Source of the DNA: Elusimicrobiota bacterium
GTDB lineage: Bacteria; Elusimicrobiota; Elusimicrobia; UBA1565
DNA: 64,000 nucleotides
Reading direction: 5' to 3'
Assembly: GCA_043827405.1 (NCBI GenBank)
Contig: JBDRPD010000108.1
Coordinates: 57,617 to 121,616, forward strand
Positions 39,695-61,286 of this stretch are shown here, piece by piece (within the stretch, counting starts at the first letter, position 1; the number at the start of each line of letters is the position of its first letter). The notes under the pieces were generated by a model. The model saw only the letters and a program-made list of their open reading frames with translations, was not told where the DNA came from and did no database searches. The translations under genes were made by a program, and so were the position numbers.

Positions 39695-39715
39695 CAGCCT
39701 TCAGCCGGGCGACGG

Positions 39716-40780: not shown

Positions 40781-40800
40781 CTCGGATCTCCTTTGCCTGT

Positions 40801-41979: not shown

Positions 41980-42001
41980 GAGATTCTCCTCCGCCCGGGC
42001 C

Positions 42002-42050
42002 CTTAAGCCTGTCCGGCCCGCTGACGGCACAATTATACTTACTTAAGCCT
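42002..42050 (-). promoter_or_regulatory. Internal promoter for telA: TATAAT -10 flanked by CTTAAGCCT direct repeats
   Basis: ATTATA at 42032-42037; CTTAAGCCT at 42002-42010 and 42042-42050. Confidence 0.5.
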
Positions 42051-42059
42051 AAAGCTTTC

Positions 42060-44443: not shown

Positions 44444-44456
44444 CGGATTCGAACTC

Positions 44457-45281
44457 TCAATTCTTAAAGCCGCTCACGTCGAACGATTCCGACTCCGCCA
44501 GCACCGCGCTCAAGCCCGCCTTCAGCTCGCCGGGATTGGCGGCGGCCTTGTACAGGGTCTGTCCCGGCTGATTGAGCGAATGCTGCTCCCCGATACAGAA
44601 GCCGATCGTATGCAGGACCACCGGCGACCGGCCCAGCAGTTCGGCCACGACCCGGGCGGGGTCCTCATTGAGCGAAGCCTCGCCGTCGGTCACGACCACC
44701 AGGTGGTACTCGCCGTAGCCGAGCTGCCGCCGCGCCTGCTCCTCGAGCTTGGCGACGCCGATATCGATCGCGGTCTTCAGCGGCGTCCCGCCGCTGGCAT
44801 TCACTTGTTTGACCGCGGCGATGAAGCGGTCGCGGTTGCCAGTGCCCAGCGGCACGCGCTCATTGTTCCCGTTGCGGTCAAAGACCAGCAGTCCCAGCTG
44901 CGCGTCGCGGGGGACCACCTGCGAGAACTCCGTCAGCGCCCGCTTGGCTGCCCGCATCTTGTTGGTATCGCCGGAGCACTTCGTATCCTGCATGCTCCCC
45001 GAACCGTCCAGGATGACGTAGTAATTTCGCAGCGTCAAATCCTCGGCCAATACCGGCGCGGCGCCGTCCGGCGCCGCCCGCGGCCAGTCGAAGGGGGCCA
45101 GCCCCTGCGGCGCCGGCGCCGGCTTGGCGACCGGCGGCGCGCCCCTTGGCGGCGTCACCTTCTTGCTGCCCGATGTTCGAAAGAGCATGATAGCGGCGAT
45201 CACGACCGCGATCCAGAACCAGACATTCCCGCTTCCGGACTTCTTCGTGCGGCCCCGCGACGGCGTTCTTTTCTGTGCCAT
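44457..45281 (-). CDS. Membrane-anchored von Willebrand factor A domain protein
   Basis: TM; MIDAS DGSGS, GGTPL, VVVTDGEA, HTIGF. Confidence 0.9.
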   Translation of the reverse strand: MAQKRTPSRGRTKKSGSGNVWFWIAVVIAAIMLFRTSGSKKVTPPRGAPPVAKPAPAPQGLAPFDWPRAAPDGAAPVLAEDLTLRNYYVILDGSGSMQDTKCSGDTNKMRAAKRALTEFSQVVPRDAQLGLLVFDRNGNNERVPLGTGNRDRFIAAVKQVNASGGTPLKTAIDIGVAKLEEQARRQLGYGEYHLVVVTDGEASLNEDPARVVAELLGRSPVVLHTIGFCIGEQHSLNQPGQTLYKAAANPGELKAGLSAVLAESESFDVSGFKN

Positions 45282-45291
45282 GATCCCGACC

Positions 45292-46995: not shown

Positions 46996-47082
46996 TTGTC
47001 GGACCTCCGGGGCACGCCGTATGGGCGCAAAAACACACTTGTGGATGTTATCAAATTTGCCCAAAGGGCAAGGAGGATGCGG

Positions 47083-48129
47083 CTACAGCGTGCACATGTC
47101 GACGTTGTCGAAGTTGCGGCCGTAGAACTGCATGTACTGGACCTTGCGGTTAAGCGCCTCGATGACGTAGCGGCAGAAGTTTATCTTGGTGAATTTCTGC
47201 GCGCTGCCCAGGCCGCCGGGGCTGAACACGTTGATCTCCATGAGCTTGTCGCCGACCACATCCAGCCCCACCAGGAACATGCCGTCCTGAACCAGCTTGG
47301 GACGAACGATCTCGGCGATGCGCAAGGCGGCGTCGCCGACCTGGGCTTCCGCCAAGGTGCCGCCGGCGTGGATGTTGGAGCGCATATCGCCGCCGGAGCG
47401 TACGCGGCGGAAGGCGGCGTACTTGCCCTTGATCCGCAGCGGCCGGCCGTTCATCACGAATAGGCGCGTATCCCCCTCCGCCGCCTGGGGAAGATACTCC
47501 TGGGCGATCACGTAGCCGTCGCGGCTGACGGCGTCGATCATCTGGTTGATATTGGGCACGTCGTCGGGGCGGACCAGGAACACGCTGGCTCCCCCCGCGC
47601 CCTGCAGCGGCTTGAGCACGACATTGCCGCCTTGATCCTTGGCGAAGTTCTTGATCTCGGCATGATCGCGTGTGATCAAGGTGCGGGGGCGGACCTCCTC
47701 GGGGAAGAGCTGAAAATACATCTTGCTCGCCGCCTTGGCCAGGCCGTTGGGATCATTAACCACAATCACGCCCCGCCGCATCGCCAGGCGCCCGAACTCG
47801 GCGGCGATACTCGCCGCCCAGGGGCGCTGGATCATATCATCGGACGGCACATTGCGCAGCATCAGCACGTCGAGATCGTCCACCGTGATCCGCCGCTGGA
47901 CCGCCGACCGGCCGCGCAGGTCGTTGAGGTAGCTCTCGGAGGTCTTGTAGCGGGTCCGCTGGACGGACCGCGCGCGCGCCCGAATGTGTTCGTCCGGATC
48001 ATAGGCGAGGTCGCCCACTCCCATCACCCAGGTCTCATGTCCCTGGTTGACTGCTTCCGCGCCCAGGCGCATGGTCGTATAGCCGGGCCCCTCGGTCTTG
48101 ATATCGTTGACGACGAAGCCGATTTTCAT
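47083..48129 (-). CDS. GshB-like ATP-grasp ligase
   Basis: LMLRN.P, VVNDPNGL, VLKPLQGAGG, IAQEYLP, GDTRLF, RSNIHAGG, GLDVVGDKLMEINVFSPGG. Confidence 0.88.
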   Translation of the reverse strand: MKIGFVVNDIKTEGPGYTTMRLGAEAVNQGHETWVMGVGDLAYDPDEHIRARARSVQRTRYKTSESYLNDLRGRSAVQRRITVDDLDVLMLRNVPSDDMIQRPWAASIAAEFGRLAMRRGVIVVNDPNGLAKAASKMYFQLFPEEVRPRTLITRDHAEIKNFAKDQGGNVVLKPLQGAGGASVFLVRPDDVPNINQMIDAVSRDGYVIAQEYLPQAAEGDTRLFVMNGRPLRIKGKYAAFRRVRSGGDMRSNIHAGGTLAEAQVGDAALRIAEIVRPKLVQDGMFLVGLDVVGDKLMEINVFSPGGLGSAQKFTKINFCRYVIEALNRKVQYMQFYGRNFDNVDMCTL

Positions 48130-48131
48130 GG

Positions 48132-50048
48132 TTATCTCCCAACGACTAAATCCAACGGTTCGACGCCCGCGCGCAGCCGTTCCAGCCGCGCTTGGGCATC
48201 CGGTAAAGAAAGGTAGCTGGGCAAGAGAGGCGGACGGCGCAGCACCTTGCGCCAGCGGAGCTCCTTAATCACCGGGACATGCGCCATGGCGATCTTGCCG
48301 AACAGCAGAGGCTCCATCTCGCCGCCGCGCCCGAAGTACTCGAGCAGCTCGCACAGCCCGCGCAGGTATACCGCATCCTTGCTCAGGCCGCCGCCGCGAA
48401 ACGCCCGCATCACCACCTGGAAGGCGGCATGCTGGGGGATGCCGCAGTCGCGGACCAACTCGCGGAAGGTCTCGACAAACTCCGCGCCGCTCATCATCCG
48501 GTGCACCGCCAGCACGCGCGCGGCCAGAGTCCGCAGGCGCGAGCCGCTCATGCCGCCGGTCAGATACTCCGCCAGCACGGCCAGGCCCTCCTGCAGTGCG
48601 TCGTAGCCGGCCAGGCCGACCGACAGCTGACGGAGCTTCTGCGCGCGGCCGTTGAAGTAGGTGACCAGATGCGTGCCCACTTCATGCTGCACGATACCCT
48701 GCACCCGTGACGCCGGGATCAGGGTCGAGCGGCCGATCAGCAGCGTGCGGCCCGAAACGACCAGGCCGACGACGTCGTCGCGGATCTCCACCGCCGCGTT
48801 CATCCGCGGATAGCGGGCGCGGCAGCGTTCGATCTCCTCCACGGCCAGCCGCGCGAAGCCGCCGGCATCGATCAGCTCCTCACGCCTGTTATGCCGGCCG
48901 CGCGGAGACAGGCGGTCAAGCAGCTGCCGGGCGCGCTCCAGCAGGCGCGCATCGACTTCCCCGTAGAGCTGGGCGCTTTCATGGCGAAAGCGCGCGGTAT
49001 TGCGCTCCTGCAGCATGGTTATCTTGCGGTCCAGCTCGACGAGCTTCTCCCGGAAAATCTGGCCGAGCGCGGAGTCCTCGACGCGCTCGACCGGCGCCTG
49101 GTACAGCCGGCGCTTGAGCAGGATGGGCTCGGCGGGTAAAGGACGGTACTGGAAGATCGGGTTCCGCTGATAACGTCGGCGGCGAAACATCCGCCACGCC
49201 TGCTCGGAGTTAACGGGGGTCAGCTGCAGCAGGAAATCGAAACTCTCCGAGACCTCGGTAAGAATCCGATCCGCCTCCCAAACAGCGCTGACCACGGCCC
49301 GGCGCCCCAGGGCGTGAAAATGCGGCGGGCGCTGGGTGGTATGCTTCTTCGCGAACTCGAAAAATATCCGCAGCAGCGCCCGGTTTACGGAGCCGCGCAG
49401 GCGCCGCAGCAGCGTGGGGAAGATTTCGCCGCTGACCGGATCGCGGTAAATGGGAGAGACTTCCAGCCCATAGTACCGGCAGTCGATCTCGCTTGCCGCC
49501 GCATGCGTCATCAGCGGGACGATGTCCCGCGGTCCAGGACGGCCGCTGGAATCGACTTTCACCCGCGCCTTTCTTTTGCCGAGGGATATCCGGCCCAGCG
49601 CTTCGGCGAACTCCTCGGTCAATGGGTCGTGCAGCCGCCCTTTCGGCACGACCAGGCGAAAGTCGGGCACCGCGAAGGCGGTGGTGACGGGGCCCTCTGT
49701 TTCCGGCGCCTTCCCGGACCATAACTCCAGGATCAAGAAGGCGCCGAAGTGCTTGTTCATGATCCTCACTACGGCACGGACCAGATCGGCCAGCCCGGCG
49801 CGCAGGCGGCGCTCGCCCGAGCAGATCATATAAGACGCTTCACCGGTGGCCAGCCGCTCGGTTCCCGCGTCGGGACGCCGCGTTGGACGCCGGTAGAGGC
49901 AAAGGAAGGGCAGTTGGCGGTCGATATGGATGCGGCCCCAGAGCGGCAGGAAGCGGCGAACGTGCTGGTTCTGCTCCAGCCGGGCGCTAATATCCCGAAT
50001 AAAACGGTCGGTAATGCCGGCGCGGCGCGGAGAGCGGCGTTTTTTCAT
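48132..50048 (-). CDS. DUF1704 / QEGLA-motif (MATCAP-like) zinc carboxypeptidase with N-terminal extension
   Basis: QHEVGTH (HExxxH), LQEGLAVLAE, RGGGLSKDAVYLRG, GKI. Confidence 0.85.
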   Translation of the reverse strand: MKKRRSPRRAGITDRFIRDISARLEQNQHVRRFLPLWGRIHIDRQLPFLCLYRRPTRRPDAGTERLATGEASYMICSGERRLRAGLADLVRAVVRIMNKHFGAFLILELWSGKAPETEGPVTTAFAVPDFRLVVPKGRLHDPLTEEFAEALGRISLGKRKARVKVDSSGRPGPRDIVPLMTHAAASEIDCRYYGLEVSPIYRDPVSGEIFPTLLRRLRGSVNRALLRIFFEFAKKHTTQRPPHFHALGRRAVVSAVWEADRILTEVSESFDFLLQLTPVNSEQAWRMFRRRRYQRNPIFQYRPLPAEPILLKRRLYQAPVERVEDSALGQIFREKLVELDRKITMLQERNTARFRHESAQLYGEVDARLLERARQLLDRLSPRGRHNRREELIDAGGFARLAVEEIERCRARYPRMNAAVEIRDDVVGLVVSGRTLLIGRSTLIPASRVQGIVQHEVGTHLVTYFNGRAQKLRQLSVGLAGYDALQEGLAVLAEYLTGGMSGSRLRTLAARVLAVHRMMSGAEFVETFRELVRDCGIPQHAAFQVVMRAFRGGGLSKDAVYLRGLCELLEYFGRGGEMEPLLFGKIAMAHVPVIKELRWRKVLRRPPLLPSYLSLPDAQARLERLRAGVEPLDLVVGR

Positions 50049-50827
50049 GAGCGGCGGAGTTCTGTGAGCAGGCCGGGAACGGCGGCGCGCAAGGCTTTTC
50101 CGACAGCGGCTATCATACTTTTATCCGGGATTCCCGTCCATTCGTCCATAAAGAACTTCTTAAACTCGACCGACAGAACGCATATCGAGCGCGCGAAGTT
50201 TTCATGGGTCCACCGCGCCAGATGTCCACCCTGGAATTTGACATTTTCGCGGACATCGAGCCGGCCGCCGGGAAAAGCGAAGGCCGCCATATCGCCCATA
50301 AAGCGGTCCACCAACGGCGACCAGCGCTCACGGACCATGGTCCCCGTTCCGACGTTGACCTGCGGGTTGCCCGCGGGGTCGGCCGGCGGAGCGTCCGGAC
50401 CGCCGCGCCGGTGATTGTAGCTGTGCAAATCGAGCACGACCAGACGTTTATGGCGCCGCAGCTTACGCGTATACAGTGCGCGCAGCATGGCGTAAAAGCC
50501 GTCGTATTCGGCCAATGAGCCGGCGGCCGCGCTTTGCGGCAAGGGACATCTCCACACCCGCAACCCCCAGGCGTCCTGCGGCCCGCGGTATACGGCATTT
50601 TCGCGCGGCCGGTTGAGGTCCACTTCGAAGCGCGAACGCAGCGCGACGATCCTCGCCGGCGCGGCCGTCGTCCAGCGGCCGGTAAAGGGATCCTCCTCGC
50701 GGAGCCGGTCGCCTTCCCCCAGCGCCAGCCGCTGCGCGATCTCCGGGCGGACCGCATGGCCGTCATGAATAGCGGTCGCGACGACGGGACCGGGCCCGGA
50801 AACCAACCGCCAAATCACATCAGCCAT
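50045..50827 (-). CDS. N-formylglutamate amidohydrolase family protein
   Basis: TAIHDGH, RLREEDPFT, SRFEVDLNRP, DLHSYNHRR, ENVKFQGG, VEFKKFFMDEWTG. Confidence 0.88.
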   Translation of the reverse strand: MADVIWRLVSGPGPVVATAIHDGHAVRPEIAQRLALGEGDRLREEDPFTGRWTTAAPARIVALRSRFEVDLNRPRENAVYRGPQDAWGLRVWRCPLPQSAAAGSLAEYDGFYAMLRALYTRKLRRHKRLVVLDLHSYNHRRGGPDAPPADPAGNPQVNVGTGTMVRERWSPLVDRFMGDMAAFAFPGGRLDVRENVKFQGGHLARWTHENFARSICVLSVEFKKFFMDEWTGIPDKSMIAAVGKALRAAVPGLLTELRRS

Positions 50828-50836
50828 AACACATCA

Positions 50837-50864
50837 TACTATGCAAATAAGCGCCCAGAGTTCC
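50837..50864 (-). promoter_or_regulatory. ECF promoter variant
   Basis: GGAACTC-N14-CATAGTA, 9 nt upstream of ATG 50827. Confidence 0.6.
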
Positions 50865-50935
50865 CGCGGGCGAAAGCAGGCCGGCCGACGGACCATCCCG
50901 CCGGCCGGCCCCTGTCATGAGGAGAGAAGATGCAC

Positions 50936-51610
50936 TTATAAATCGTCCGTCTCCTCGAAGTCCTTTTCAACCGGCGTCTGGAACTCCTCTTCTCCGCCGA
51001 TCGGAGCGTCTTCCTCCTCCGGCGCGGCGACCTCCGACTCTCCCTCGTCATGCGCCCCCACCCGGATCCGCCGAAACTCCTTGGTGTAGGAGAACCGCGC
51101 CATGCCGCCGTAGCTGTAGATCACTTCGTCGGTGATCTCCCATGCGCCCTTGGTCTGGGTCAGCGTGAAGTCGGCCAGAACGTCCTCATCCTTCTCGCCG
51201 AACCCCGGATCGCCCCGGGAGATGAACGCCGCCCGCACGATATAGGTCGCATCGTGCACCTTCATGGGATCCTCCGCCGCGAACTTCGAGAACATCAGCG
51301 GCATCGTCTCCTCCGACTCATCATCGTAGAATGGATAGAGCCCGCCGCCCGACTTGGCCTGCGTCCGCACATGCTTATCCACCGCGTCCTGCAGGGCCTT
51401 CTTGAGCGCGGCGTCGAACTTCACCGCGACCGGCGCCTTGGGTGTTTCCTTCACCGCGGCCGGCGCCTTGGGCATTTCTTTCTCCACGACCGGCGCCTTG
51501 GGCGTCTCCTTTTCCGCGGCCGCGGCCGCCGCCGCCAAACCCAACGCCAAAGCCATACTCAAAGACATCACCTTATTCATCCTCATAGTCTGAATTCTCC
51601 TCTCCATCAT
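50936..51610 (-). CDS. Secreted protein with KETPKAP repeats and acidic tail
   Basis: Signal peptide; three 30-bp tandem repeats at 51421-51510; C-terminal EEEDAPIGGEEEF...DDL; true start may be 51586. Confidence 0.75.
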   Translation of the reverse strand: MMERRIQTMRMNKVMSLSMALALGLAAAAAAAEKETPKAPVVEKEMPKAPAAVKETPKAPVAVKFDAALKKALQDAVDKHVRTQAKSGGGLYPFYDDESEETMPLMFSKFAAEDPMKVHDATYIVRAAFISRGDPGFGEKDEDVLADFTLTQTKGAWEITDEVIYSYGGMARFSYTKEFRRIRVGAHDEGESEVAAPEEEDAPIGGEEEFQTPVEKDFEETDDL

Positions 51611-51624
51611 TTTGCCGCCACCGG

Positions 51625-51652
51625 GACTACGCGGAGTGCGGGGAAAAGTTCC
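51625..51652 (-). promoter_or_regulatory. ECF promoter
   Basis: GGAACTT-N14-CGTAGTC. Confidence 0.8.
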
Positions 51653-51666
51653 CGCTTTTTCTCCTC

Positions 51667-52050
51667 TCAGGCCGCGCTGTAATCCGCCAAAATCTCCCGC
51701 ACCTTCTCGCGCAAGCGCTTCGCGTTGAAGGGCTTGGCCAGCCAGCCGTTGGCGCCGGCGCCGAGGCCCTTCCAGACATTCTTCTCTTCGGGGACGGCCG
51801 TCAGAAAAAGCACCGGCACGCCGCGGCCGGCCTTGGAGGACCGCAGGCGCCGGCAGGCGCTGATGCCGTCCAGCCCGGGCATGACCACATCCATGATCAC
51901 CAGATCCGGCGCGAACAAAGATACCGCCTCATCCAGGTCATCTGCCGACTCAAGAGTGGATATCTCATACCGCGTCCCCAGCGCCTCATGGACGATGCTG
52001 CGCAGATCGGGATCATCGTCGACGACCAACAGCCTTGTCTTATTCATCAT
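51667..52050 (-). CDS. Single-domain response regulator
   Basis: LVVDDD, IMDVVMPGLDG, FLTA, AKPF. Confidence 0.92.
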   Translation of the reverse strand: MMNKTRLLVVDDDPDLRSIVHEALGTRYEISTLESADDLDEAVSLFAPDLVIMDVVMPGLDGISACRRLRSSKAGRGVPVLFLTAVPEEKNVWKGLGAGANGWLAKPFNAKRLREKVREILADYSAA

Positions 52051-52066
52051 TGCACCGCCTTGACAG

Positions 52067-52132
52067 GACTACGCAGTCACCGGTCGAAAGTTCCCGCGCT
52101 CGGCGGAACTTTCTCCGGCGCGCTGCGTAGTC
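52067..52132. promoter_or_regulatory. Back-to-back divergent ECF promoters
   Basis: GGAACTT-N14-CGTAGTC on - (52094-52067) and on + (52105-52132). Confidence 0.85.
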
Positions 52133-52172
52133 CTAGCGGCATAGCGGAATCGACACCTCTGGAGGAGTTCGC

Positions 52173-52640
52173 GTGGAACGGATACCCGACCATTCGCGCC
52201 GCCGTATAAAGATACTGCTAGTCGAGGACGATCCTGCCGTGCGCGAGGCCACGGCGGAATTGCTGCGCCGCGCGGGATATACGGTGCGGACCCGCGCCGA
52301 CGGCGAGTCCGCGCGCAAAGCCGTGCTGAAGAACAAGTTTAATCTGGTTCTCTGCGACTACGAACTCCCCGGACTCAACGGCCTCGAATTCGCCGCGCAC
52401 CTGCGGAGCGTCGCGCCGGAAACGCCCTTGGTGATGGTTTCCGGCGTCGCCCCGGTCGAGGCCACCTTGGCCGCCGTATCCAGCGGCGTCGCCGGCTTTC
52501 TTTCGAAGCCCTACGAGACCGGCAACCTGCTGTGGATGATCGAGCGGGCGCTGCGCAGCGGCACGGAACGGCTCATCCCCGCTCCGCCCGCCCCTCCGCC
52601 GACCGAAGACGGCCGGAACTTTCCCGCCGAACCTGCGTAG
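52173..52640 (+). CDS. Single-domain response regulator
   Basis: LLVEDD, LCDYELPGLNG, MVSG, SKPY; GTG start with GGAGG SD. Confidence 0.9.
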   Translation: MERIPDHSRRRIKILLVEDDPAVREATAELLRRAGYTVRTRADGESARKAVLKNKFNLVLCDYELPGLNGLEFAAHLRSVAPETPLVMVSGVAPVEATLAAVSSGVAGFLSKPYETGNLLWMIERALRSGTERLIPAPPAPPPTEDGRNFPAEPA

Positions 52641-52642
52641 TC
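52615..52642 (+). promoter_or_regulatory. ECF promoter embedded in the end of the response regulator gene
   Basis: GGAACTT-N14-CGTAGTC; the TAG stop lies inside the -10 element. Confidence 0.8.
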
Positions 52643-52668
52643 CCGCCGTAGGGTTTGGGGAGGCTTTA

Positions 52669-54024
52669 ATGACGCACCTGCGCTCGCGCCTGACCGTCCA
52701 CATCGGGATCTACGCCCTGCTGCTGCTGCTCGCGGCGGCGGCGGCGACCACTTGGCGGGGACGCATACACGCCGAGCTTGCCGCGAGCTTCGACAACGAC
52801 CTCAAAGCCCTAACCCACATCTCCGAGCTGCGCCTGGCCCTGCGGCACCTCGAACATCCGAACCGCGACCTGCAGAAGACGGCGCACACGCGCGCGACGG
52901 AGAAGCTCAAGGACCTTAACGCTCTGCAAATGTCCGACCTGGAGCGCTCCCTCATGCGGGCAGTCACCAGCGACTTCGCCAGCCAATTGAAAACCGGTTA
53001 TGCGGAAGACCTCCGGCGGCTTAAGCGGCTCAACCTCAAGCAGCTCGAAACCCGCCGCCGGGCGGCCCGGCGGGCCTCCTTTGCGACTTATATTTTCATG
53101 TCTCTTGCCGTAGCGCTCTCGTCATGGGGGCTCGCGCGAAGCCTCAGCCGAACCATCATCCGTCCGATACAGGATCTCGCCCTGCGCGTCCAGAACCTCG
53201 ACTCCGACCGAGCCTGGGGAATGAAGCACGAACGCAGCGGCCTCTGGGAGATCGATACCCTATATGATGACGTGTCGGCCGCCGCCGTACGGCTCAAGGT
53301 CCAGTACGCGAAACTGGAGCACCTAAACGCCCTGCGCGGCCAGCTGGTATCGTTGGCCAGCCACGAATACGGCAATTTCATGACCGCCGTGCTCACCGGG
53401 CTAAGCCTTCTCGAGCTGGATGACCTGCCCGCCGAACGCCGCCAAAAGCTCTTCGGCATCGTCCGCTCCAACGCCCAGCTCCTGGTCCGCCTGGGCGAGG
53501 ACTTCCTAAACCTGGCGCGCGCCGACCTCGGAATCATCGAGCTGGAAAAGAGCCCGCTCGACTTCGGCCAGCTCATCCGCGGCTTCATCAGCGTGTCCGA
53601 ACTGCGCGCCGTCTCCCGCGGCATCCGTCTGCAGGTCGAGATCGAAAAGGACCTGCCCGAGGTCCGCGGCCACCGCGCGACCCTGGCCTTCGTGGTCAAC
53701 AGCCTCATCAGCAATGCGCTCAAGTACGGCAAAGACGGCGGCAGCGCACAGGTCCGCTTGCGGCGGATCGACGACGCGATCGAGTTCTCGGTGCGCGACG
53801 ACGGCGTCGGCATGGACGAGGACACCATTAAAAAAGTGCTCGCCGGCGGCTATCGCGGCAAGGATTTCCGGGCCACAACGCAGGGCTTCGGAGTGGGACT
53901 GTCGATGGCGCAGGAGATACTCGCCGCCCACGGAACACGGCTGGAAATCGAGAGCCAGCCGGGCCGCGGCTCCACACTCCGGGTGCGCCTGCCGATCCTG
54001 TCCGGCAGCACGGCGTCCGCCTGA
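52669..54024 (+). CDS. Membrane sensor histidine kinase (2 TM, HAMP, HisKA, HATPase)
   Basis: ASHEYGN H-box, SLISNALKY, DDGVGM, GFGVGL, GRGST. Confidence 0.88.
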   Translation: MTHLRSRLTVHIGIYALLLLLAAAAATTWRGRIHAELAASFDNDLKALTHISELRLALRHLEHPNRDLQKTAHTRATEKLKDLNALQMSDLERSLMRAVTSDFASQLKTGYAEDLRRLKRLNLKQLETRRRAARRASFATYIFMSLAVALSSWGLARSLSRTIIRPIQDLALRVQNLDSDRAWGMKHERSGLWEIDTLYDDVSAAAVRLKVQYAKLEHLNALRGQLVSLASHEYGNFMTAVLTGLSLLELDDLPAERRQKLFGIVRSNAQLLVRLGEDFLNLARADLGIIELEKSPLDFGQLIRGFISVSELRAVSRGIRLQVEIEKDLPEVRGHRATLAFVVNSLISNALKYGKDGGSAQVRLRRIDDAIEFSVRDDGVGMDEDTIKKVLAGGYRGKDFRATTQGFGVGLSMAQEILAAHGTRLEIESQPGRGSTLRVRLPILSGSTASA

Positions 54025-54025
54025 T

Positions 54026-55051
54026 TCAGCCGTTCGACCGTTCCAGCGCCTCGCGCACGTCTTTGAGGCGCCGGCGGCTGAGGTCGCCCACGATCAGGTA
54101 GTAATACTTGCCGTTCTTCCAGGACAGGAAGCTGCCGGCCCAGGAAACGGCCGCGAATTCGGCGTCCGCGTCATCCTCCTCTTCGCCGGCGGCCGAGAAG
54201 TCGGAAGCGTCAATGGCATAAGGAGAAACAAAAACCGACAGCAGCGACAGGCCGTTGGAGTAGCGAAAGTGCGCCACCGTTTCCCCGGCGAGAGGGATGG
54301 CGCGGACCGTATCCAGACGGTAGCCGAAGGGCAGGGTAGCGTGCCATGCCGTGCCCGTAAAACCGTACCGCGCCAGCGCTCCCGACGACACGATCGCCGC
54401 ACGCTCAGGAGCATTTATGATTTCGATATTGCCGCCGGCCGGCGGCTTGAACAGCGCGTCATCAAGGTCCTGCTTGATCTCGACATGCGTCAGGCGGGCC
54501 TCCTGGATGCGCTGCCCCGCGTGGCTGCTCTGCCGGCGGTGCATGACGATCCCGCTCCGGGGATCGACCCACAGGACGCGGCGGGAGCCGGCATCCGCCT
54601 TCGGCTGCAGCACTACCCCCTGCGCGCCAACTCCCGAATACTCCTGCACTCCCGCGTCGCGGACCTCGAAGTTTTCGGCCAGCAGCGCCTTGAGCCCGCT
54701 GTCGTTGAGCTCGCCGTGGCGGATGCGCCGGATATCGCGCGCCAAGACCACGTCGGAGCCCGCGCGCTGGACCCACTCCCGGGCGCCGTTTTGAACCGTG
54801 GTCTTAATGACGCCGCCGGCGGAGTCCAGCACCTCATGGCGCCAGCGATTGGGCGGTTTGTAGTAAACGCGCACCTCGTGCGCCCGGCTCTGCTTCCCAT
54901 GCCAGGATACGACGAGCTTTTGGCCCATGTACGCCGTCTTGGGCGGCAGCACGACGAGCTCCAACAGCTTGTCCTTGGATATCGGCGCCGCCTCGCCGAA
55001 CACCGGTACGGCGAGAGCGGCCAGCAGCAGCGGCAGCGCGCCGCGGCTCAC
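54026..55051 (-). CDS. MucB/RseB-like periplasmic sigma-E regulator
   Basis: Signal peptide; LolA-like N-domain (RRVLWVDPRSGIVM); C-domain LPFGYRL, HFRYSNGLSLLSVF, LIVGDL; GTGA overlap. Confidence 0.8.
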   Translation of the reverse strand: MSRGALPLLLAALAVPVFGEAAPISKDKLLELVVLPPKTAYMGQKLVVSWHGKQSRAHEVRVYYKPPNRWRHEVLDSAGGVIKTTVQNGAREWVQRAGSDVVLARDIRRIRHGELNDSGLKALLAENFEVRDAGVQEYSGVGAQGVVLQPKADAGSRRVLWVDPRSGIVMHRRQSSHAGQRIQEARLTHVEIKQDLDDALFKPPAGGNIEIINAPERAAIVSSGALARYGFTGTAWHATLPFGYRLDTVRAIPLAGETVAHFRYSNGLSLLSVFVSPYAIDASDFSAAGEEEDDADAEFAAVSWAGSFLSWKNGKYYYLIVGDLSRRRLKDVREALERSNG

Positions 55052-55533
55052 CGCATGCCCTGGTTGTGCGCGATGAAGTCGTACGGCGCCGCGACGAGGA
55101 TCGCCCGTTGGATATCCGCCGACTTGCGGCTGGAGCGCACATGCTCCGCCAGCAGCGTCCGCAGCAGAACCTTGGGCTCCTCCTCTCGCGGCAGCCACTG
55201 TGTGGCGGCAAAGGCCAGCATAACCGCGGCCATGGCGCCCGCCAGCGCCCAGCGCGGCGCCGCCGGCAGCAGGAAGCTCGACCACGACCGCGGCATGACC
55301 GGCTCGGCCGCCCCCGCCTCGTCGATCATCCCGGCGATCCGCGCCCGCAGAACTTCCGGCAAAGGGCGGATGGACTTTTCCGCGAGCACCGCCTTGGCCC
55401 GCTCCAGTCCCAGATGCTCCGCACGGCAGGCGGCGCAGTCCCGCAGATGCTCCACCAGCGGCACTCTCTCCACCGGCGCCAGCGCCGCGTCCACATAAGC
55501 GGAAATCGATTCTAATGCTTTGCCGCAGTCCAT
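55048..55533 (-). CDS. ZAS-type transmembrane anti-sigma factor
   Basis: MDC..ALESISAYVD..L, HLRDCAAC, single TM. Confidence 0.88.
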   Translation of the reverse strand: MDCGKALESISAYVDAALAPVERVPLVEHLRDCAACRAEHLGLERAKAVLAEKSIRPLPEVLRARIAGMIDEAGAAEPVMPRSWSSFLLPAAPRWALAGAMAAVMLAFAATQWLPREEEPKVLLRTLLAEHVRSSRKSADIQRAILVAAPYDFIAHNQGMR

Positions 55534-56102
55534 AATATGCCTCCCGCAACGTAATAGGGCTCGATAATCTTCTTTAAAATCTGCCGGCCGCGGAAAATTC
55601 GCGAGCGTACGGTACCGATAGGCAGCCGCAGAAAGCGCGAGATATCTTCATAGCTCATTCCCATTAGGTCGCAAAGAGCCAACGGTTCGCGATAGACCGC
55701 AGGAGTTCGACCCAGCGCCGCGCGGACCATCGATCTTTCTTCCTGCGCGGCCAGTTCCTGCTCGGGGAGCCGCGCCCGATCGCTCTTCCGCTCGCCCAGC
55801 GTCCGCCGATCGTCCCCGCCGTCGTCCGCCTCGTCAAGCGACACGGTCGGCCGCGTCTTCTGCCGCCGCTTGACGTCGAAATAGACGTTCTGCACGATCT
55901 TGTAAAGCCAGCTCTCAAACGGCCGCGCCGGATCGTAGCGCGCGAAGCTCTTCAAAGCGCGGGCGAATGCCTCGGCGGTGATATCCGCCGCCTCCTGCTC
56001 GCCGCCGGCCAAAGTCACGGCAAACGAATAAATCCGGTCCCCTTTCTCCTCGAGCAGGCGGCGAAACATCTCCCGGCGCGCCTGGTTGAGGCTGCCGCTC
56101 AT
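55512..56102 (-). CDS. ECF sigma factor (RpoE-like), autoregulated
   Basis: AADITAEAF, FESWLYKIVQN, SYEDIS..L..PIGTVRSRIFRGR; ECF promoter at 56141-56114; AGGAG SD. Confidence 0.92.
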   Translation of the reverse strand: MSGSLNQARREMFRRLLEEKGDRIYSFAVTLAGGEQEAADITAEAFARALKSFARYDPARPFESWLYKIVQNVYFDVKRRQKTRPTVSLDEADDGGDDRRTLGERKSDRARLPEQELAAQEERSMVRAALGRTPAVYREPLALCDLMGMSYEDISRFLRLPIGTVRSRIFRGRQILKKIIEPYYVAGGILWTAAKH

Positions 56103-56113
56103 GCGGCTCCTAG

Positions 56114-56236
56114 TACTACGCAGAACGCCATGGGAAGTTCCATCAATAAACTCCGCGGCCGGCCGCGGCCGCACCCACATATTAGCCGATTTCACGACTT
56201 CCCCGCCGGGAACTTTCTCCCGGTTGCCGCGTAGTC
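56114..56236. promoter_or_regulatory. Divergent ECF promoters (sigma autoregulation and exported protein/amidohydrolase)
   Basis: GGAACTT-N14-CGTAGTA on - (56141-56114); GGAACTT-N14-CGTAGTC on + (56209-56236). Confidence 0.85.
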
Positions 56237-56244
56237 TTTCGAGA

Positions 56245-56664
56245 ATGCTGCCCAGGACGATGCTTGCCGTCGGCGCCCTATTGGCGCTGCTCGCGCTCCC
56301 CGGCGCGGCGGGCGACGACGCCGCCGGGGCGAAAGCCGCGCCCGCGGAACGCGAAGCCGTCGTCGTCGAGGTAGACGTGAAGGCGAAAATCCTGCGCGTC
56401 CACGAAGCGCACAGCTCGACGACGACTCTCCGCGTGACGGCGCGCTGGACCCTCACCGCCGGCTGCGGCCGCGAAAATATCCGGCTCGCCGACATCCGCA
56501 CCGGCGACCGCGTCCGCTACCGGGACCGACAGCTGCACGTCGAAGGCCGCTGCCGCAAGACGCCGCCGGCGCAGGAAGAAGACCAGGACCGCTATATCGA
56601 GGAGCTCGACGACCAGAACTATGCAAGCGCCGACACAACCTGGAGCCGGCCCAAAGAGGATTAA
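56245..56664 (+). CDS. Small exported OB-fold-like protein with acidic tail
   Basis: Signal peptide; VVVEVDVKAKILRV...LADIRTGDRVRY pattern. Confidence 0.6.
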   Translation: MLPRTMLAVGALLALLALPGAAGDDAAGAKAAPAEREAVVVEVDVKAKILRVHEAHSSTTTLRVTARWTLTAGCGRENIRLADIRTGDRVRYRDRQLHVEGRCRKTPPAQEEDQDRYIEELDDQNYASADTTWSRPKED

Positions 56665-56696
56665 ATACTGGCGGCCAGCCGCCAAGGAACGCGCCC

Positions 56697-57386
56697 ATGA
56701 AGCTCCCCCTCATTATTTCCGTCCCGCACGCGGGCGTGCGCGTCCCGTCCGAGGTCGGCGGTCTATGCCGGCTCTCGCCTGAAGAGATAGCCGCCGACGG
56801 CGACGTCGGCGCGCGCGAAATATTCGCTATTGAAAACGAGGTCGAACACCACGTAACCACCGACATTTCACGGGTCTTCGCCGACCTGAACCGCGCGCCG
56901 GACGATCTCGGCAAGGACGGCGCGGTGAAGTCCCATACCCTGTGGGATGTCCGCGTCTACTGCCGGCCGCTCAAGGAGCAGGAGAAAATGCGGCTGATCG
57001 AGAGCTACCACCGGCCCTACCACCGCCGGCTCGCGGAACATGCGCGCGCCGACGTGCGCCTCGGCATCGACTGCCACACCATGGCGCCCGCTGGTCCGGC
57101 GCTCGCGCCGGACCCGGGAATGACGCGGCCGGAAATCTGCCTATGCAATGCCGGCGGAACCTGCCCGCAGCCGTGGTTCGATGCCCTCGCCGCATGCCTG
57201 GAGCAGACCTTCGAGCTCTATGTCGCGCGCAACGAGCCGTTCGCCGGAGGGTATATCATCAGCGAGCATTCCAAGGAGCTGCCTTGGGTACAGTTATTAT
57301 TCTCGAGCGCGCCGTTCATGAGCTCGCGGAAAAAACGCGAAGGGCTTCTGGATGCCCTCGAGCGCTGGTGCCGTCGACGGCTGTAG
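56697..57386 (+). CDS. Second N-formylglutamate amidohydrolase family protein
   Basis: ISVPHAG, SRVFADLNRAP, YHRPYHRRL, IDCHTM, NEPFAGGYI. Confidence 0.88.
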   Translation: MKLPLIISVPHAGVRVPSEVGGLCRLSPEEIAADGDVGAREIFAIENEVEHHVTTDISRVFADLNRAPDDLGKDGAVKSHTLWDVRVYCRPLKEQEKMRLIESYHRPYHRRLAEHARADVRLGIDCHTMAPAGPALAPDPGMTRPEICLCNAGGTCPQPWFDALAACLEQTFELYVARNEPFAGGYIISEHSKELPWVQLLFSSAPFMSSRKKREGLLDALERWCRRRL

Positions 57387-57407
57387 GAAAATGCGCGCCC
57401 GCGGCGT

Positions 57408-57608
57408 TCAGCCGTCGTCTTCTTCTTCGGCGCCCGCGTCCGGCGCCTCTTCGGCGGGGCGGTAATTGCTCGCCACCCACCGCAGGAACCACGCCGGCTG
57501 GGCGATGATCACATAGGCGGCGAGCAGGCTGGTCAGCGGCACGAAAAAAACCGCCGTATCCACCAGCACGATGCAGAACGCGAGCAGTACCCGGTGATGT
57601 GTTTTCAT
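57408..57608 (-). CDS. Small membrane protein (66 aa) with acidic tail
   Basis: Hydrophobic hairpin; GGAG SD; ECF promoter upstream. Confidence 0.7.
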   Translation of the reverse strand: MKTHHRVLLAFCIVLVDTAVFFVPLTSLLAAYVIIAQPAWFLRWVASNYRPAEEAPDAGAEEEDDG

Positions 57609-57618
57609 CCGTCTCCAA

Positions 57619-57646
57619 GACTACTATTTATCGGCCGATAAGTTCC
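57619..57646 (-). promoter_or_regulatory. ECF promoter variant containing a 14-bp palindrome
   Basis: GGAACTT-N14-AGTAGTC; TTATCGGCCGATAA at 57628-57641. Confidence 0.7.
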
Positions 57647-57731
57647 CATCCGCGCGATGCCGGAGCCGGCGAGAGCAGCCGAATACACAGGCAGGGCCTT
57701 GTCCCGGCTTGCCGCACATTTGATGCTCGAA

Positions 57732-58181
57732 CTAACGGAAGTAATAACGCAGGCCCAGCCCCGCGTCCAAACCGACGCTGGTGCCCGGGGTCAAACGGAA
57801 GACGGGAGCGACTTCCAGGAATATCTCCACGGGATTGCGCGGCAGCCAGTACGCCAGCCCGGCGACCGCGCGAATACCGAACTCCGCGGTATGGAAGGTC
57901 CGAACCTGCGCACCCAGGCCGAAATAGACGGGCAGTTTCCCTTCGGGCGGCTGCGGGAGAACCTTCCAACCATGCCAGAGATAGTCCCCATACACGGCCA
58001 ATTTTGTGCTGAAGCCTATGCCCATGTCCACGGCCTGCGCCTCGTTAATCCAGACTTTGCCCGTGACGCCTGTGGGATTACCGAGAATGACGCCGGCGCC
58101 CATGTCCCCCGTCTTCTGTGCCCAAAGAGGACTTGCACCGGTTACGACCAGGCATACGAATGCTAGTAGTGTGTTTTTCAT
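57732..58181 (-). CDS. Small outer-membrane beta-barrel protein
   Basis: Signal peptide; GAGVILGNPTGVTGK; C-terminal GLGLRYYFR. Confidence 0.75.
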   Translation of the reverse strand: MKNTLLAFVCLVVTGASPLWAQKTGDMGAGVILGNPTGVTGKVWINEAQAVDMGIGFSTKLAVYGDYLWHGWKVLPQPPEGKLPVYFGLGAQVRTFHTAEFGIRAVAGLAYWLPRNPVEIFLEVAPVFRLTPGTSVGLDAGLGLRYYFR

Positions 58182-58316
58182 TCAATCTCCATCCGCGATG
58201 TCTAAAGCTCTACCCCCCAAGTATGGCAGAGAAATAATAATTTAAAAAATAGATAATATTGTAAAATTCCATCTATAAAACTTATGGTACCACCGCGCGG
58301 CCGCTCGCTGGCGGCA

Positions 58317-58344
58317 TGAAACCTTTCCGCTACTCGACTGTATA
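58317..58344 (+). promoter_or_regulatory. SigW-like ECF promoter
   Basis: TGAAAC-N16-TGTATA upstream of ECF gene 58365. Confidence 0.55.
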
Positions 58345-58364
58345 ACTAGGTAAGCGCGCTGATT

Positions 58365-58883
58365 ATGGAACAGCCCGACCGGGACATCGCAGCGGACGTG
58401 CTCGCCGGAGACCAAGCGGTCTTCCGCGTTATCGTCGAGCGCTATCAGGACCGGCTGTTCGACCTTGCGCTGCGGATGACGCGCAGCCGGCAGGACGCAG
58501 AGGACCTCGTGCAGACGGCTTTCATCCGGATGTTCGCAAAATTAAAAAGCTACGACCGCCGCTACGCCTTTTCGACCTGGGCCTATACGATCACGCTGAA
58601 CCTCGTTCGCAACCATCAGCGGCGCAAGCGCCTGATCCGTTTTCTGTCGCTGGAGGCCGCGCCCGAGCCGCGGGCCGAGGACGCGCCGGCGCCGCGGCTC
58701 GAGCGCGCGATCGCGGAGCTGCCGGAGACTCTGCGCGAGGCCTTCGTGCTCCACTATATCCACGAGGAACCGGTGAGGGCGGTCGCCGAGATGCTGGGCG
58801 TGAGCGAGAACGCGGCCAAGCTTAGGCTGCTGCGGGCGCGCGGCGCGCTGCGTGAACGGATACAGGGTGATCTGAATGGATGA
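58365..58883 (+). CDS. ECF sigma factor (SigW-like)
   Basis: DAEDLVQTAF, FSTWAYTITLN, VAEMLGVSENAAKLRLLRAR. Confidence 0.92.
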   Translation: MEQPDRDIAADVLAGDQAVFRVIVERYQDRLFDLALRMTRSRQDAEDLVQTAFIRMFAKLKSYDRRYAFSTWAYTITLNLVRNHQRRKRLIRFLSLEAAPEPRAEDAPAPRLERAIAELPETLREAFVLHYIHEEPVRAVAEMLGVSENAAKLRLLRARGALRERIQGDLNG

Positions 58884-59301
58884 CTTCGAGAAAGAATTGA
58901 GGGCCGCCTGCGGCGAGCTGCCCCGGCATAAGCCGGAGCAGAGCCTGTGGCCCGCCGTCGAGCGCCGGCTCGAGCCGCGGCGCCTGCCGCTCGTCCCGGT
59001 GTTCGCGTTCGCGGCCGCCGCGGCCGTTCTCGCGCTCATCCTGCGGCCGAGCCCCGACGACCCGGCGGCGCCGGTACCGCCGCGCGCGCGCGTTTCCGTC
59101 GAGATCGTCAAGGCGGCCGCGCCTGAACCGGTCTTTGTCGCGGTCCGTCCGGTCGACGAGCGGCGGCCCAACGGCCATCCCCTGTTCGCCAAGGTCGGCC
59201 GACCCGTCGATCTCAAGGCGTCGCGCGAGCGGCAGGACGACGCGGCTTTTCCTTTTATCGACCGGCCGGTTAAGATCGACGACATTTTCCAGTCTTTATG
59301 A
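58876..59301 (+). CDS. Putative transmembrane anti-sigma factor
   Basis: Overlaps the sigma stop; short cytoplasmic SLWPAVERRL, one TM, Pro-rich extracytoplasmic part. Confidence 0.65.
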   Translation: MDDFEKELRAACGELPRHKPEQSLWPAVERRLEPRRLPLVPVFAFAAAAAVLALILRPSPDDPAAPVPPRARVSVEIVKAAAPEPVFVAVRPVDERRPNGHPLFAKVGRPVDLKASRERQDDAAFPFIDRPVKIDDIFQSL

Positions 59302-59324
59302 GACAGAAAAACAGGAGGCAGGTT

Positions 59325-59771
59325 ATGAGCAATACATGGACAAGGCTGACGATGGCCGTCTGCCTGGCGGGCTTCATGGCCGCCGGCGCCGTCGCCGAAG
59401 ACAAGAAGTCGGCGGACAAAGAGGCAAAAGCGTGGCACGGGTATCGGAGCTTCATGCTGCCGGTGGATGCGTACGTGACGCAGTACCTGAAGAAAGAGGA
59501 CCGGATCGATCTCCTCGTCACCTTCGACGCTCAAGTCAAGGACGTCAAGGAGAAGGTCACGGCGACCATACTGCAGAACGTGCTGGTCATCGACGTGCGG
59601 CCGATGGCCGGCGAGACCAAGGCCTCGCTGCTCCTGCTGATGAATCCGAAGGAGGCGCAGTACACGGCGCTTTCGCTCGTGCAGGGGGAGGTCGTCGTCA
59701 TCAAACGCCAGGAAGGGGACACGGAGATGACGCCGATGGAGATGTCGAGCTTCCGCAAGCTGTTCCGCTAG
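59325..59771 (+). CDS. Exported stand-alone CpaB/RcpC-like domain protein
   Basis: Signal peptide; GYRSFMLPV...KKEDRIDLLVTF...TATILQNVLVIDV...LLMNPKEAQ; no SAF domain; AGGAGG SD. Confidence 0.75.
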   Translation: MSNTWTRLTMAVCLAGFMAAGAVAEDKKSADKEAKAWHGYRSFMLPVDAYVTQYLKKEDRIDLLVTFDAQVKDVKEKVTATILQNVLVIDVRPMAGETKASLLLLMNPKEAQYTALSLVQGEVVVIKRQEGDTEMTPMEMSSFRKLFR

Positions 59772-59783
59772 GGCGGTACTCCC

Positions 59784-61286
59784 ATGCGGCGGGCTCTTCT
59801 CTATATCCCGGCGGGGCTGCTGTTCTTCTTGGCGGGCCGCACGATGTCGGAGCGCGGTAAGCCGGAGCCCGACTTCGGGTGGGCGGCGACCTCCTCGCAG
59901 GCGATCGCGCTCCATGAGCAGGGCCTCTACGCCGAGGCCCTGCTTCCCGCCGCGGAGACCTTGCAGATCGCCGAGGGCTTCGGCGAAAACGACTTCCGGA
60001 TCGTCTACTCTCTCGACCTGACCGGCAGGATCTACCGCCGGATCGGAAGGCTCGAAGAGGCGGAGGACCTGCACCGCCGCGCCGTCGAAATCAACCAGAA
60101 GACGCTCGCCGCCGATGATATCAAGCATGTCTTCTATCTCGGCAATCTCGCCGACGCCCTGGCGGCGCGGGGCAAGTTCGACGAGGCGGAGCCGCTGTAT
60201 TACCGCGTTCTCGCGCTGCACCGCCGGGCGGCGGACGAGTTCAGCAACCCGGTCGCCCGCGACTGGGCGCGGATCGGCACGCTCTACAAGAACTGGGGTC
60301 TTTATAAGCGGGCAGGCGAGACCTTCCGGCGCGTGGGCGCGATAACCGAGAGGATCGACGCGCCTGATCCCATGGTGAGCGCCGATAGGACTTCCGCCAT
60401 GTGCGGGATGCTCCTTAAGAAGGGCTGGCCGCTGGTCGCGCGGCCGCTGGCGCGGAACAGATTCCTCAAGGATGTCGATCCCCAGGAAGACGCCGCAGCG
60501 CTCTGCGCGCAGGCCCTAAGCCTGCGCCTGGCGCGGCTGCCGCCGGATCATCCCGACCTGGCCGAGGCGCACAGCGACATGGGGCTCGTCAGCTTGAGAA
60601 AGGGAGACCTGGAGGCTGCGGAGGAGCACCTCGCCAGCGCGCTGCGCATCTACGGCCGCAATTCCCGCGCCGAGGCGGCGCGCCAGGCGGAGGCGCGGCT
60701 GAACCTGGCGGAGCTGCGCGCTGCCCAGGGCCGGATCGCGGAGGCCAAGGATATGTTTTCCGCGCTGCTGCCGCAGTACGAACATGTCCTGGGCGTCGAT
60801 CACTACGCCGTGGTCCGGCGGGTCATGGACATCGCCCGCTTTCACGCCGCCGCCGGAGACTACGCCGCCGCCGAGGCGCTTTATCGGAAGGCGGCCGTGC
60901 GGCAGGCCGAGTCGCCGCAGGCGGATAGGGCCGATCGCGAATACCTGCTGTCCAGGATCGCCGAGCTTTACTGGATGCGCGGAAAGTACGAGGAAGCCGA
61001 GGCCTATTACCGGCGCGCGGTCGAGGCCAACGAGATTGAGAACGGTCTCGACGATCGGAGCGTCCTCGATACCCTGCATGCGCTGGCCCGTCTCTACGCT
61101 CAGCGTCGCCGGTCCGTCGAGCTGAACCTATGCGTCGAGCGCATGCAGCGGATATTGGAGAGAAATCTAGGCATCCGCCATCGCGCCAATAGCGCCGCGT
61201 ATCATGCGATAATGAGGCTGTACCGGGACGCCGACATCGCGCCGCCTCGACGTCTCTTCGCGAAGCGGGCGAGCGGACTGCGCTGA
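59784..61286 (+). CDS. Anchored TPR protein (kinesin-light-chain-like repeats)
   Basis: LGNLADALAARGKFDEAEPLYYRVL, DHPDLAEAHSDMG, GKYEEAEAYYRRA. Confidence 0.85.
   Translation: MRRALLYIPAGLLFFLAGRTMSERGKPEPDFGWAATSSQAIALHEQGLYAEALLPAAETLQIAEGFGENDFRIVYSLDLTGRIYRRIGRLEEAEDLHRRAVEINQKTLAADDIKHVFYLGNLADALAARGKFDEAEPLYYRVLALHRRAADEFSNPVARDWARIGTLYKNWGLYKRAGETFRRVGAITERIDAPDPMVSADRTSAMCGMLLKKGWPLVARPLARNRFLKDVDPQEDAAALCAQALSLRLARLPPDHPDLAEAHSDMGLVSLRKGDLEAAEEHLASALRIYGRNSRAEAARQAEARLNLAELRAAQGRIAEAKDMFSALLPQYEHVLGVDHYAVVRRVMDIARFHAAAGDYAAAEALYRKAAVRQAESPQADRADREYLLSRIAELYWMRGKYEEAEAYYRRAVEANEIENGLDDRSVLDTLHALARLYAQRRRSVELNLCVERMQRILERNLGIRHRANSAAYHAIMRLYRDADIAPPRRLFAKRASGLR

Follow-up and report, generated by a model that had tools for sequence, protein, structure and literature searches.

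A short motif, GGAACT(T)-N14-CGTAGT, recurs in a 64,000-nucleotide stretch of DNA from an Elusimicrobiota bacterium (called hereafter the window; positions 57617-121616 of contig C108 of the host genome, G000) and is likely the -35/-10 promoter of an extracytoplasmic function (ECF) sigma factor encoded there, sigma A. We give a probability of about 75% to the reading that sigma A, held by an anti-sigma factor and an RseB-like partner, drives from this motif a regulon of about 15 transcription units, apart from that of a paralogue, sigma B. The reading rests on comparisons of DNA and protein sequences. The host genome (4.33 Mb, 63% GC) was compared with 40 relatives (labelled G002, G003 and so on), giving a set of 41 genomes. 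Its genes were taken from simple calls of our own, which leave an intergenic share of 11.9%, and gene and protein families in the window were labelled by a Pfam profile search. Two classes of sites were distinguished, both selected by pattern: class A, of the GGAACTT-N14-CGTAGT type, and class B, in which GGAAC-N16/17-CGTA is followed by T, C or A. Looser patterns gave high control counts and were left unused.

The window contains six exact copies of the class A motif, one copy with one mismatch and one with two mismatches (Table 1). These eight matches compare with 0.56 expected, and with a maximum of three in 100 shuffles. A preliminary description of this DNA had placed all eight correctly. 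It had also put them 8-40 nt before a start codon; they are indeed close to starts, the measured gap between motif end and start codon being 9-41 nt. Sites also occur in back-to-back pairs, 10 and 67 nt apart in the window, 5 nt on contig C83, and 7, 7, 20 and 33 nt in relatives. No paper on back-to-back ECF promoters was found in the open-access literature (subscription papers were outside the scope of our literature searches).

Genome-wide, the exact motif occurs 11 times, always with a spacer of 14 nt, and not once at any of the spacers 10-13 and 15-18. Six of these copies fall inside 4.6 kb of the window, and the other five are located on C22, C29, C83, C89 and C107, the last two being near-identical copies. 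When only GGAAC-N16-CGTAGT was required, 14 of 17 occurrences were intergenic. One of the three genic ones, at 52615, sits within the 3' end of the receiver 2 gene, whose TAG stop codon (52638-52640) belongs to CGTAGT. With a spacer of 17, two occurrences were found, both genic. A matrix trained on 17 sites from the relatives G002, G003 and G011 was used for the genome scan that the preliminary description had suggested. All of the 13 top-ranked sites lay within 200 nt of a same-strand start, versus 7.7% at random, and 10 out of 10 column-shuffled matrices gave no match at the same threshold. Seven of the 13 are outside the window, on other contigs. The earlier notion of a compact local regulon is therefore not supported, about half of the strong sites being elsewhere (5/11 exact copies, 7/13 top matrix matches). 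For the two near-matches of the window, the matrix score was 19.9 at 57646, a value equalled by 19 genome sites (15 at 200 nt or less from a start), and 11.4 at 50864, equalled by 103 sites (34 within 200 nt); the 57646 site is thus the more credible of the two. In a phylum-wide draw of 301 genomes, more than two exact motifs were present only in the host (11) and G002 (4), G003 and G011 being outside the draw. ECF promoters are described as depending on the two boxes together and on a spacer of rigid length, and SigH as reading GGAACA, 17 nt, GTT (10.1101/534826); in the window motif, GGAAC is likewise 17 nt from GT.

Sigma A orthologues were detected in four of the 41 genomes, namely the host, G003 (52%), G011 (49%) and G002 (46%), and they form one clade of the sigma tree (clade A, support 99/92, 47 rows). 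Exact motif counts were 11 in the host, eight in G003, two in G011 and four in G002, as compared with one in each of four other genomes and none in the remaining 33. The counts track clade A, in favour of sigma A as the proposed reader of the motif. G002 and G003, which represent two other genera, maintain the gene order (sigma, anti-sigma, RseB-like gene, convergent kinase), and the motif stands ahead of the sigma, the kinase and the homologues of a 216-aa exported protein. The ECF promoter and the autoregulation put forward earlier agree with the fixed spacer and with an exact site ahead of sigma A that is kept in both relatives; the proposed control of the kinase and of exported acidic proteins is supported by motifs kept ahead of the same genes. 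A shift of the G011 regulon to CGTCGT through an altered sigma2 loop was considered and dropped, only one such site being present in G011. The survey also revealed a third widespread ECF clade with zinc anti-sigmas (L005-L023), which has no upstream GGAAC/CGT site and is not among the host matches.

The gene at +1 of sigma A, which overlaps it, encodes an anti-sigma factor, and the gene at +2 an RseB-fold protein; at -1 lies the divergent gene of a 139-aa protein, and the end of the operon abuts the convergent kinase. Sigma A scored 75.9 bits against TIGR02937 (cut-off 42.9). Its sigma4 helix, GTVRSRIFR, is common to AlgU (6in7), and the closest solved sequence is that of mycobacterial SigE (PDB, E 1.8e-24). 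A model of the RseB-fold protein (predicted local distance difference test, pLDDT, 76; four-row alignment) matched RseB (3m4w, Foldseek E 2.7e-14) and also MucB. The same protein had no match among PDB sequences, and is placed in the PDB by fold alone. The module of sigma factor, zinc anti-sigma and RseB announced by the preliminary description was thus recovered by Pfam (sigma70 regions 2 and 4, zf-HC2, MucB_RseB) and, for RseB, also by fold. A contig scan for named relatives of sigma A gave four distant loci only, and a protein search gave 13 matches, none informatively named. No Rfam match was found across window positions 44000-60000.

Table 1. Motif sites and genes of the sigma A region (window positions).
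Feature	Position	Strand	Remarks
Exact motif	56115..56141	-	12 nt ahead of sigma A, autoregulatory site; same motif ahead of G002 and G003 orthologues
Exact motif	56209..56235	+	Divergent from sigma A site; 9 nt ahead of 139-aa exported protein
Exact motif	52615..52641	+	27 nt ahead of histidine kinase; overlaps receiver 2 stop codon
Exact motif	52105..52131	+	41 nt ahead of receiver 2; back-to-back partner of 52094 site, 10 nt away
Exact motif	52068..52094	-	17 nt ahead of receiver 1; motif also at G003 orthologue
Exact motif	51626..51652	-	15 or 39 nt ahead of 216/224-aa exported acidic-tailed protein
One-mismatch motif, probable	57620..57646	-	11 nt ahead of 66-aa membrane protein
Two-mismatch motif, doubtful	50838..50864	-	G of CGTA lost; 10 nt ahead of amidohydrolase 1
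ECF sigma A, 196 aa	55512..56102	-	PF04542 (sigma2) and PF08281 (sigma4); clade A in tree
Zinc-binding anti-sigma, 161 aa	55048..55533	-	zf-HC2, HxxxCxxC; one predicted membrane helix, ~96-114 (hydropathy)
Exported RseB/MucB-fold protein, ~340 aa	54026..55051	-	MucB_RseB; at +2
Membrane histidine kinase	52669..54024	+	HisKA/HATPase_c; convergent with sigma operon, layout kept in G002 and G003
Receiver 1, single-domain response regulator, 127 aa	51667..52050	-	PF00072
Receiver 2, single-domain response regulator, 155 aa	52173..52640	+	PF00072
Exported acidic-tailed protein (216/224 aa)	50936..51610	-	No Pfam family
Exported 139-aa protein	56245..56664	+	OB-like lead (DUF5666/CusF-like), template modelling score <0.5, lead only
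N-formylglutamate amidohydrolase 2	56697..57386	+	FGase; no own site
66-aa membrane protein, acidic tail	57408..57608	-	No Pfam match
Amidohydrolase 1	50045..50827	-	FGase; first gene of operon 47083..50827
MATCAP/QEGLA protein	48132..50048	-	MATCAP
Glutathione-synthetase-like ATP-grasp	47083..48129	-	GSH-S

Both response regulators named as targets in the preliminary description are motif-led. The link of receiver 1 is conserved, its homologue being directly preceded by the motif in G003 and lying within a motif-led run of genes in G002, but no homologue of receiver 2 was found within the G002 and G003 stretches examined. The motif precedes three out of three homologues of the 216-aa protein in these two genomes. 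The core of this protein gave a weak NTF2-like fold lead (best E 0.025), no fold match at E 0.001, and atlas matches that are unnamed. It shares with the 139-aa and 66-aa proteins an N-terminal hydrophobic stretch and a tail rich in acidic residues (among the three, 15, 11 and 8 D/E within the final 35 positions). The motif also leads four paralogues of the 139-aa protein, on C73, C83, C89 and C107. Other targets outside the window are an MFS (major facilitator superfamily) transporter, an M48 peptidase that we take to be of the HtpX type, a tandem ATP-grasp ligase and two proteins without family. Two amidohydrolases had also been listed as members: both are of the FGase family, but the first depends on the doubtful site at 50864, and the second would join the regulon only via read-through across a 32-nt gap. 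Some further features were noted. The H-box of the kinase is atypical (SHEYGNFMT; GHEFGNVMT in G002), and a 460-aa exported protein without Pfam or NCBIfam match lies 5 nt behind a perfect site on another contig (G000:C22:6193-7575). The window holds two additional ECF genes, at 58365-59301 (+) and 35884-36342 (-), neither of which is motif-led.

Sigma B, encoded on contig C52, is 38% identical to sigma A and has the same layout of sigma, zinc anti-sigma and RseB-like gene (the two RseB-like proteins are 30% identical); the gene that follows the module is presumably RadC-like. A sigma B query had matches in 38 of the 41 genomes at E 1e-38. Upstream GGAAC-N16/17-CGTA was present at 28 of 30 sigma B loci and at none on the reverse strand, and the next base was G in 0 of 29 sites. 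This sister motif differs from the window motif by about two letters. The class B pattern was found at 5-47 sites in 40 of the 41 genomes, versus 0-2 for the control. It stood ahead of comEC in 26 of 29 aligned loci (30 were sampled, and one miss had no upstream DNA), and 25 of 30 recA loci had it at a distance of up to 500 nt (for one of the misses, the upstream DNA is 66 nt long); the reverse-strand control gave 0 for both genes, and the background rate was 0.7% of genes. Five genomes from other orders of the class had 0-2 class B motifs each, not above control, so that the motif may be limited to this order.

Among 39 targets of class B sites scanned in the host, out of 45 intergenic sites, 21 were DNA uptake, nuclease, ORF6N, integrase or transposase genes, five were toxin-antitoxin-like, two were SpoVG or NYN, and 11 had no clear family. 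The motif precedes comF, comEC and comM, with a dprA-like gene four genes behind comM. None of the host CGTAGT targets belongs to these DNA families, except for one weak helix-turn-helix match. In five genomes without clade A sigma, 66 of 120 GGAACTT-N14-CGTA sites were examined. An open frame followed in 65 cases, with a Pfam match in 50, and 35 of the 66 sites precede RecA, ComF-, ComEC- and ComM-type (ComF and ComM being identified by domain composition, ComF with a score below its cut-off), MutS, RecQ-family, ERCC4, HNH, GIY-YIG, YhcG, RhuM, AlbA, ORF6N, integrase or transposase genes.

Positions of start codons differ between the classes. Of 66 class B sites, 29 are followed by an ATG at a distance of 6-7 nt, which suggests leaderless messages and hence a -10 box spanning roughly -13 to -7. 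Offset 1 gives a lesser peak (11/66), for which a second in-frame ATG at 7 accounts only in part. Class A sites showed no such peak. The flanks of CGTA differ as well: class A has G or C before it in 27 of 29 sites and GT after it, whereas class B has T before it in 63 of 72 sites, and T, C or A after it. Moreover, class A spacers have one length, and class B spacers two, one base longer being accepted. The flanks of CGTA, together with the stricter class A spacer, would be what mainly separates the two regulons.

Since the motifs share the GGAAC and CGTA core, and the sigmas a GTVRSR helix, sigma B could read class A sites, either alongside sigma A or in its place; the regulons would then overlap and differ only by signal. 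Overlap between ECF regulons is reported in Bacillus (PMC5758882). CGTAGT also stands ahead of recA in G007 and G013, two genomes in which no clade A sigma was detected. Nevertheless, only 2 of 120 GGAACTT-N14-CGTA sites end in GT in the five genomes lacking clade A, versus 11 of 24 in the host; G never follows CGTA in the sites ahead of sigma B genes (0/29), and the target sets of the host are unmixed. We regard this alternative as quite unlikely. A general stress response of the EcfG type, in which the kinase and receivers would feed back on sigma A without any envelope-proteolysis switch, is unlikely too, somewhat less so. It would account for the kinase being syntenic and motif-led in three genomes, and receiver 1 likewise, and for what the motif is linked to in relatives, namely MgtE, an MscS-like channel, a GCS2 ligase and a cluster with TreS, GlgB and TreY; EcfG regulons are described as including MscS, trehalose genes and single-domain receivers (PMC6599016). 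On the other hand, the anti-sigma is a membrane zinc-binding protein with an RseB partner, not NepR/PhyR, read-through to the trehalose genes of G003, 6-18 kb behind the site, is hypothetical, and the link is absent in the host.

The preliminary description had favoured a single island regulon that takes in the amidohydrolase/MATCAP/ATP-grasp operon. Six of the 11 exact sites do cluster within 4.6 kb, a weak site is placed 10 nt ahead of the first gene of the operon, and another ATP-grasp gene is motif-led in the host (C53) and in G003. But 7 of the 13 top matches are elsewhere, and the weak site, with its two mismatches, has a score of 11.4 that 103 others equal. Amidohydrolase 1 has a homologue in one of 40 relatives, G002, and the cluster there is motif-free in the 20 kb examined. 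The operon is thus a doubtful member, and the island reading as a whole improbable. It is hardly credible that the sites are operator or repeat relics, or are read by the nearby ECF at 58365-58883, 0.7 kb from the last site: the latter is only 26% identical, with neither a GTVRSRI helix nor a site upstream, while spacer sequences are unrelated, with boxes and distance fixed, and the motif is kept ahead of sigma A orthologues.

We retain control of the class A sites by sigma A as the likely reading, against which several observations weigh. Training sites of the matrix were chosen with a pattern taken from the window motif, so that its test is not fully independent. The co-occurrence of sigma A and motif concerns four genomes of one family, which are not independent either. 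One of them, G011 (83% complete, in 850 contigs), encodes a clade A sigma, yet the site ahead of it reads CGTCGT and a set of sites is absent. The CGTAGT found at recA in G007 and G013 indicates that sigma B probably tolerates G after CGTA; cross-talk is hence possible, and insulation not absolute. Two RNA runs and two DNA runs of one study, taken over all contigs, gave no start-site information. Finally, the case for a stress role of sigma A is thin, as most targets are without family and the links are found only in relatives: in the host, no site lies less than 700 nt from the MgtE and MscS matches, and neither TreY nor a close TreS was detected.

Comparison with known systems shows partial likenesses. 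As in RpoE/AlgU (ECF02), which reads GAACTTT and GTCT (PMC7826278), the -35 box contains GAACTT, the GTVRSRIFR helix is present, and an autoregulated operon carries a membrane anti-sigma at +1 and an RseB-fold protein at +2; unlike there, the anti-sigma is a zinc-finger protein, RseC is missing, and the -10 box is CGTAGT instead of GTCT (score against TIGR02939 76.5, cut-off 236). SigE/SigH (ECF14 and kin) have in common with sigma A the zinc anti-sigma at +1 and the GGAAC, 17 nt, GT arrangement, but sigma A differs in the third -10 base, A, and the extended GT, in its RseB partner and in the absence of an O-methyltransferase at -1 (107.7 against the SigE model NF007229, cut-off 265). ECF281 resembles it by a one-helix zinc-finger anti-sigma and a -35 GGAACTT, and differs by its -10, GTCTAA; the passages on this group in PMC7826278 mention no RseB. 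Like EcfG (ECF15), whose targets are described as kinases, single-domain receivers, small exported proteins, MscS and trehalose genes (PMC6599016), sigma A has a GGAAC -35 and a kinase, single-domain receivers and small exported proteins as targets; it differs by CGTAGT versus GTT/CATT and by the zinc anti-sigma/RseB arrangement versus the NepR-PhyR switch (no genome-wide PhyR search was made). Bacillus subtilis SigM, SigW, SigX and SigV offer the example of overlapping ECF regulons sorted by small -10 and spacer differences (PMC5758882). Sigma A and B are similarly paralogous ECFs with near-identical promoters, and SigW is the best NCBIfam model for sigma A, below its cut-off; the Bacillus factors, however, all serve envelope stress, whereas the sister regulon here is one of DNA uptake and recombination. 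Judged by the group descriptions consulted, sigma A agrees with none of the ECF groups in every feature, and a matching group may exist. Its mix of parts is uncommon: a zinc anti-sigma with RseB, and an RpoE-type -35 with a CGTA -10.

For sigma B, the likeness is to alternative sigmas that run competence in Firmicutes, ComX of streptococci and SigH of Lactobacillus sakei (PMC3364868, PMC7665891, PMC4109385). Its motif too fronts genes of DNA uptake and DNA metabolism. It differs in belonging to the ECF sigmas, in sharing its operon with zinc anti-sigma and RseB-like genes, and in having integrases, transposases and ORF6N among the carriers of its motif. By analogy, sigma B likely works as does streptococcal ComX, though as an anti-sigma-controlled ECF; placed under a membrane anti-sigma with an RseB-like protein, it would answer an extracytoplasmic signal. 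The open-access literature yielded neither a competence or recA regulon under an ECF nor an ECF regulon from Elusimicrobiota.

The following mechanism can be proposed. Sigma A would be held by its membrane zinc anti-sigma and a periplasmic partner of predicted RseB fold. On an envelope signal, the anti-sigma tail would become open to regulated proteolysis, in the manner described for RpoE/RseA/RseB (PMC7826278). Freed sigma A would amplify its own operon and turn on about 15 transcription units, in and outside the cluster, transcription starting some 7-8 nt behind the last T of CGTAGT; its role may lie in envelope or osmotic stress. Sigma B would read GGAAC-N16/17-CGTA(T/C/A) ahead of uptake, recombination and mobile-element genes. 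We lean, with reserve, towards a scenario in which the order runs these genes from one ECF, and in which the paralogue sigma A took over a separate stress regulon just by changing the CGTA flanks and tightening the spacer; the sigma tree (47 rows) gives no direction for the split. Sigma A alone would be an ordinary autoregulated ECF in an unstudied lineage, and the pair matters more. If the scenario is true, one cell contains natural, near-orthogonal ECF promoters. The pair predicts a signal pathway governing natural transformation and recA across an uncultured order, and suggests that mobile elements hook onto the host competence switch. Two sigmas with dozens of natural promoters also pose the question of how one or two bases by the -10 core insulate paralogous ECFs, which bears on promoter biochemistry and synthetic circuits.

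Several observations concern class B sites and recA. ORF6N genes with the motif number eight in the host (on C25, C40, C53 and C54), and 11 of 65 sites examined in relatives; the motif is also present on integrases (one of the integron type) and on IS91 and IS200-like transposases. In G024 and G028, many class B sites have identical spacers, about ten copies each, which points to spread by way of a repeated element. In G038 a sigma B-like match was obtained, yet the pattern gave no class B site, and comEC and recA lack the motif as well; specificity of its sigma B may have shifted. The LexA DNA-binding domain was not found in 9 of the 41 genomes. Seven LexA-less genomes were in the recA sample: the motif is 79-123 nt ahead of the gene in G007, G013, G026, G029 and G039, and 375 nt from it in G008, whereas G038 has none. 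A swap of LexA for sigma B control at recA is possible. Elsewhere, LexA-like palindromes overlapping sigma70-like promoters upstream of recA (L080-L109) vary across the order, being CTGTACATTTGTACAG in the host (C7:11839-11854) and CTGAACAAATGTTCAG, CTGAACCCTTGTTCAG, CGAACTTGTGTTCG or CTGGACAAATATCCAG in others. LexA boxes are GAAC-N4-GTTC in Gram-positive bacteria and CTG-N10-CAG in enteric ones, and some palindromes of the order merge the two.

Regarding the amidohydrolase/MATCAP/ATP-grasp operon itself, a terminator scan found no clear stop between it and the unit starting at 51652, and no paper on such an amidohydrolase/DUF1704/ATP-grasp cluster was found in the literature. In G002 (L110:11501-13483), the ATP-grasp gene is followed by a single 660-aa frame that joins amidohydrolase and MATCAP, and this fusion supports a shared pathway. 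Behind the ATP-grasp gene of the window, a run of genes on the same strand (37977-47064, -) encodes an NMT1-like/OmpA fusion, a VWA protein, a second binding-protein/OmpA fusion, TelA and an ABC transporter.

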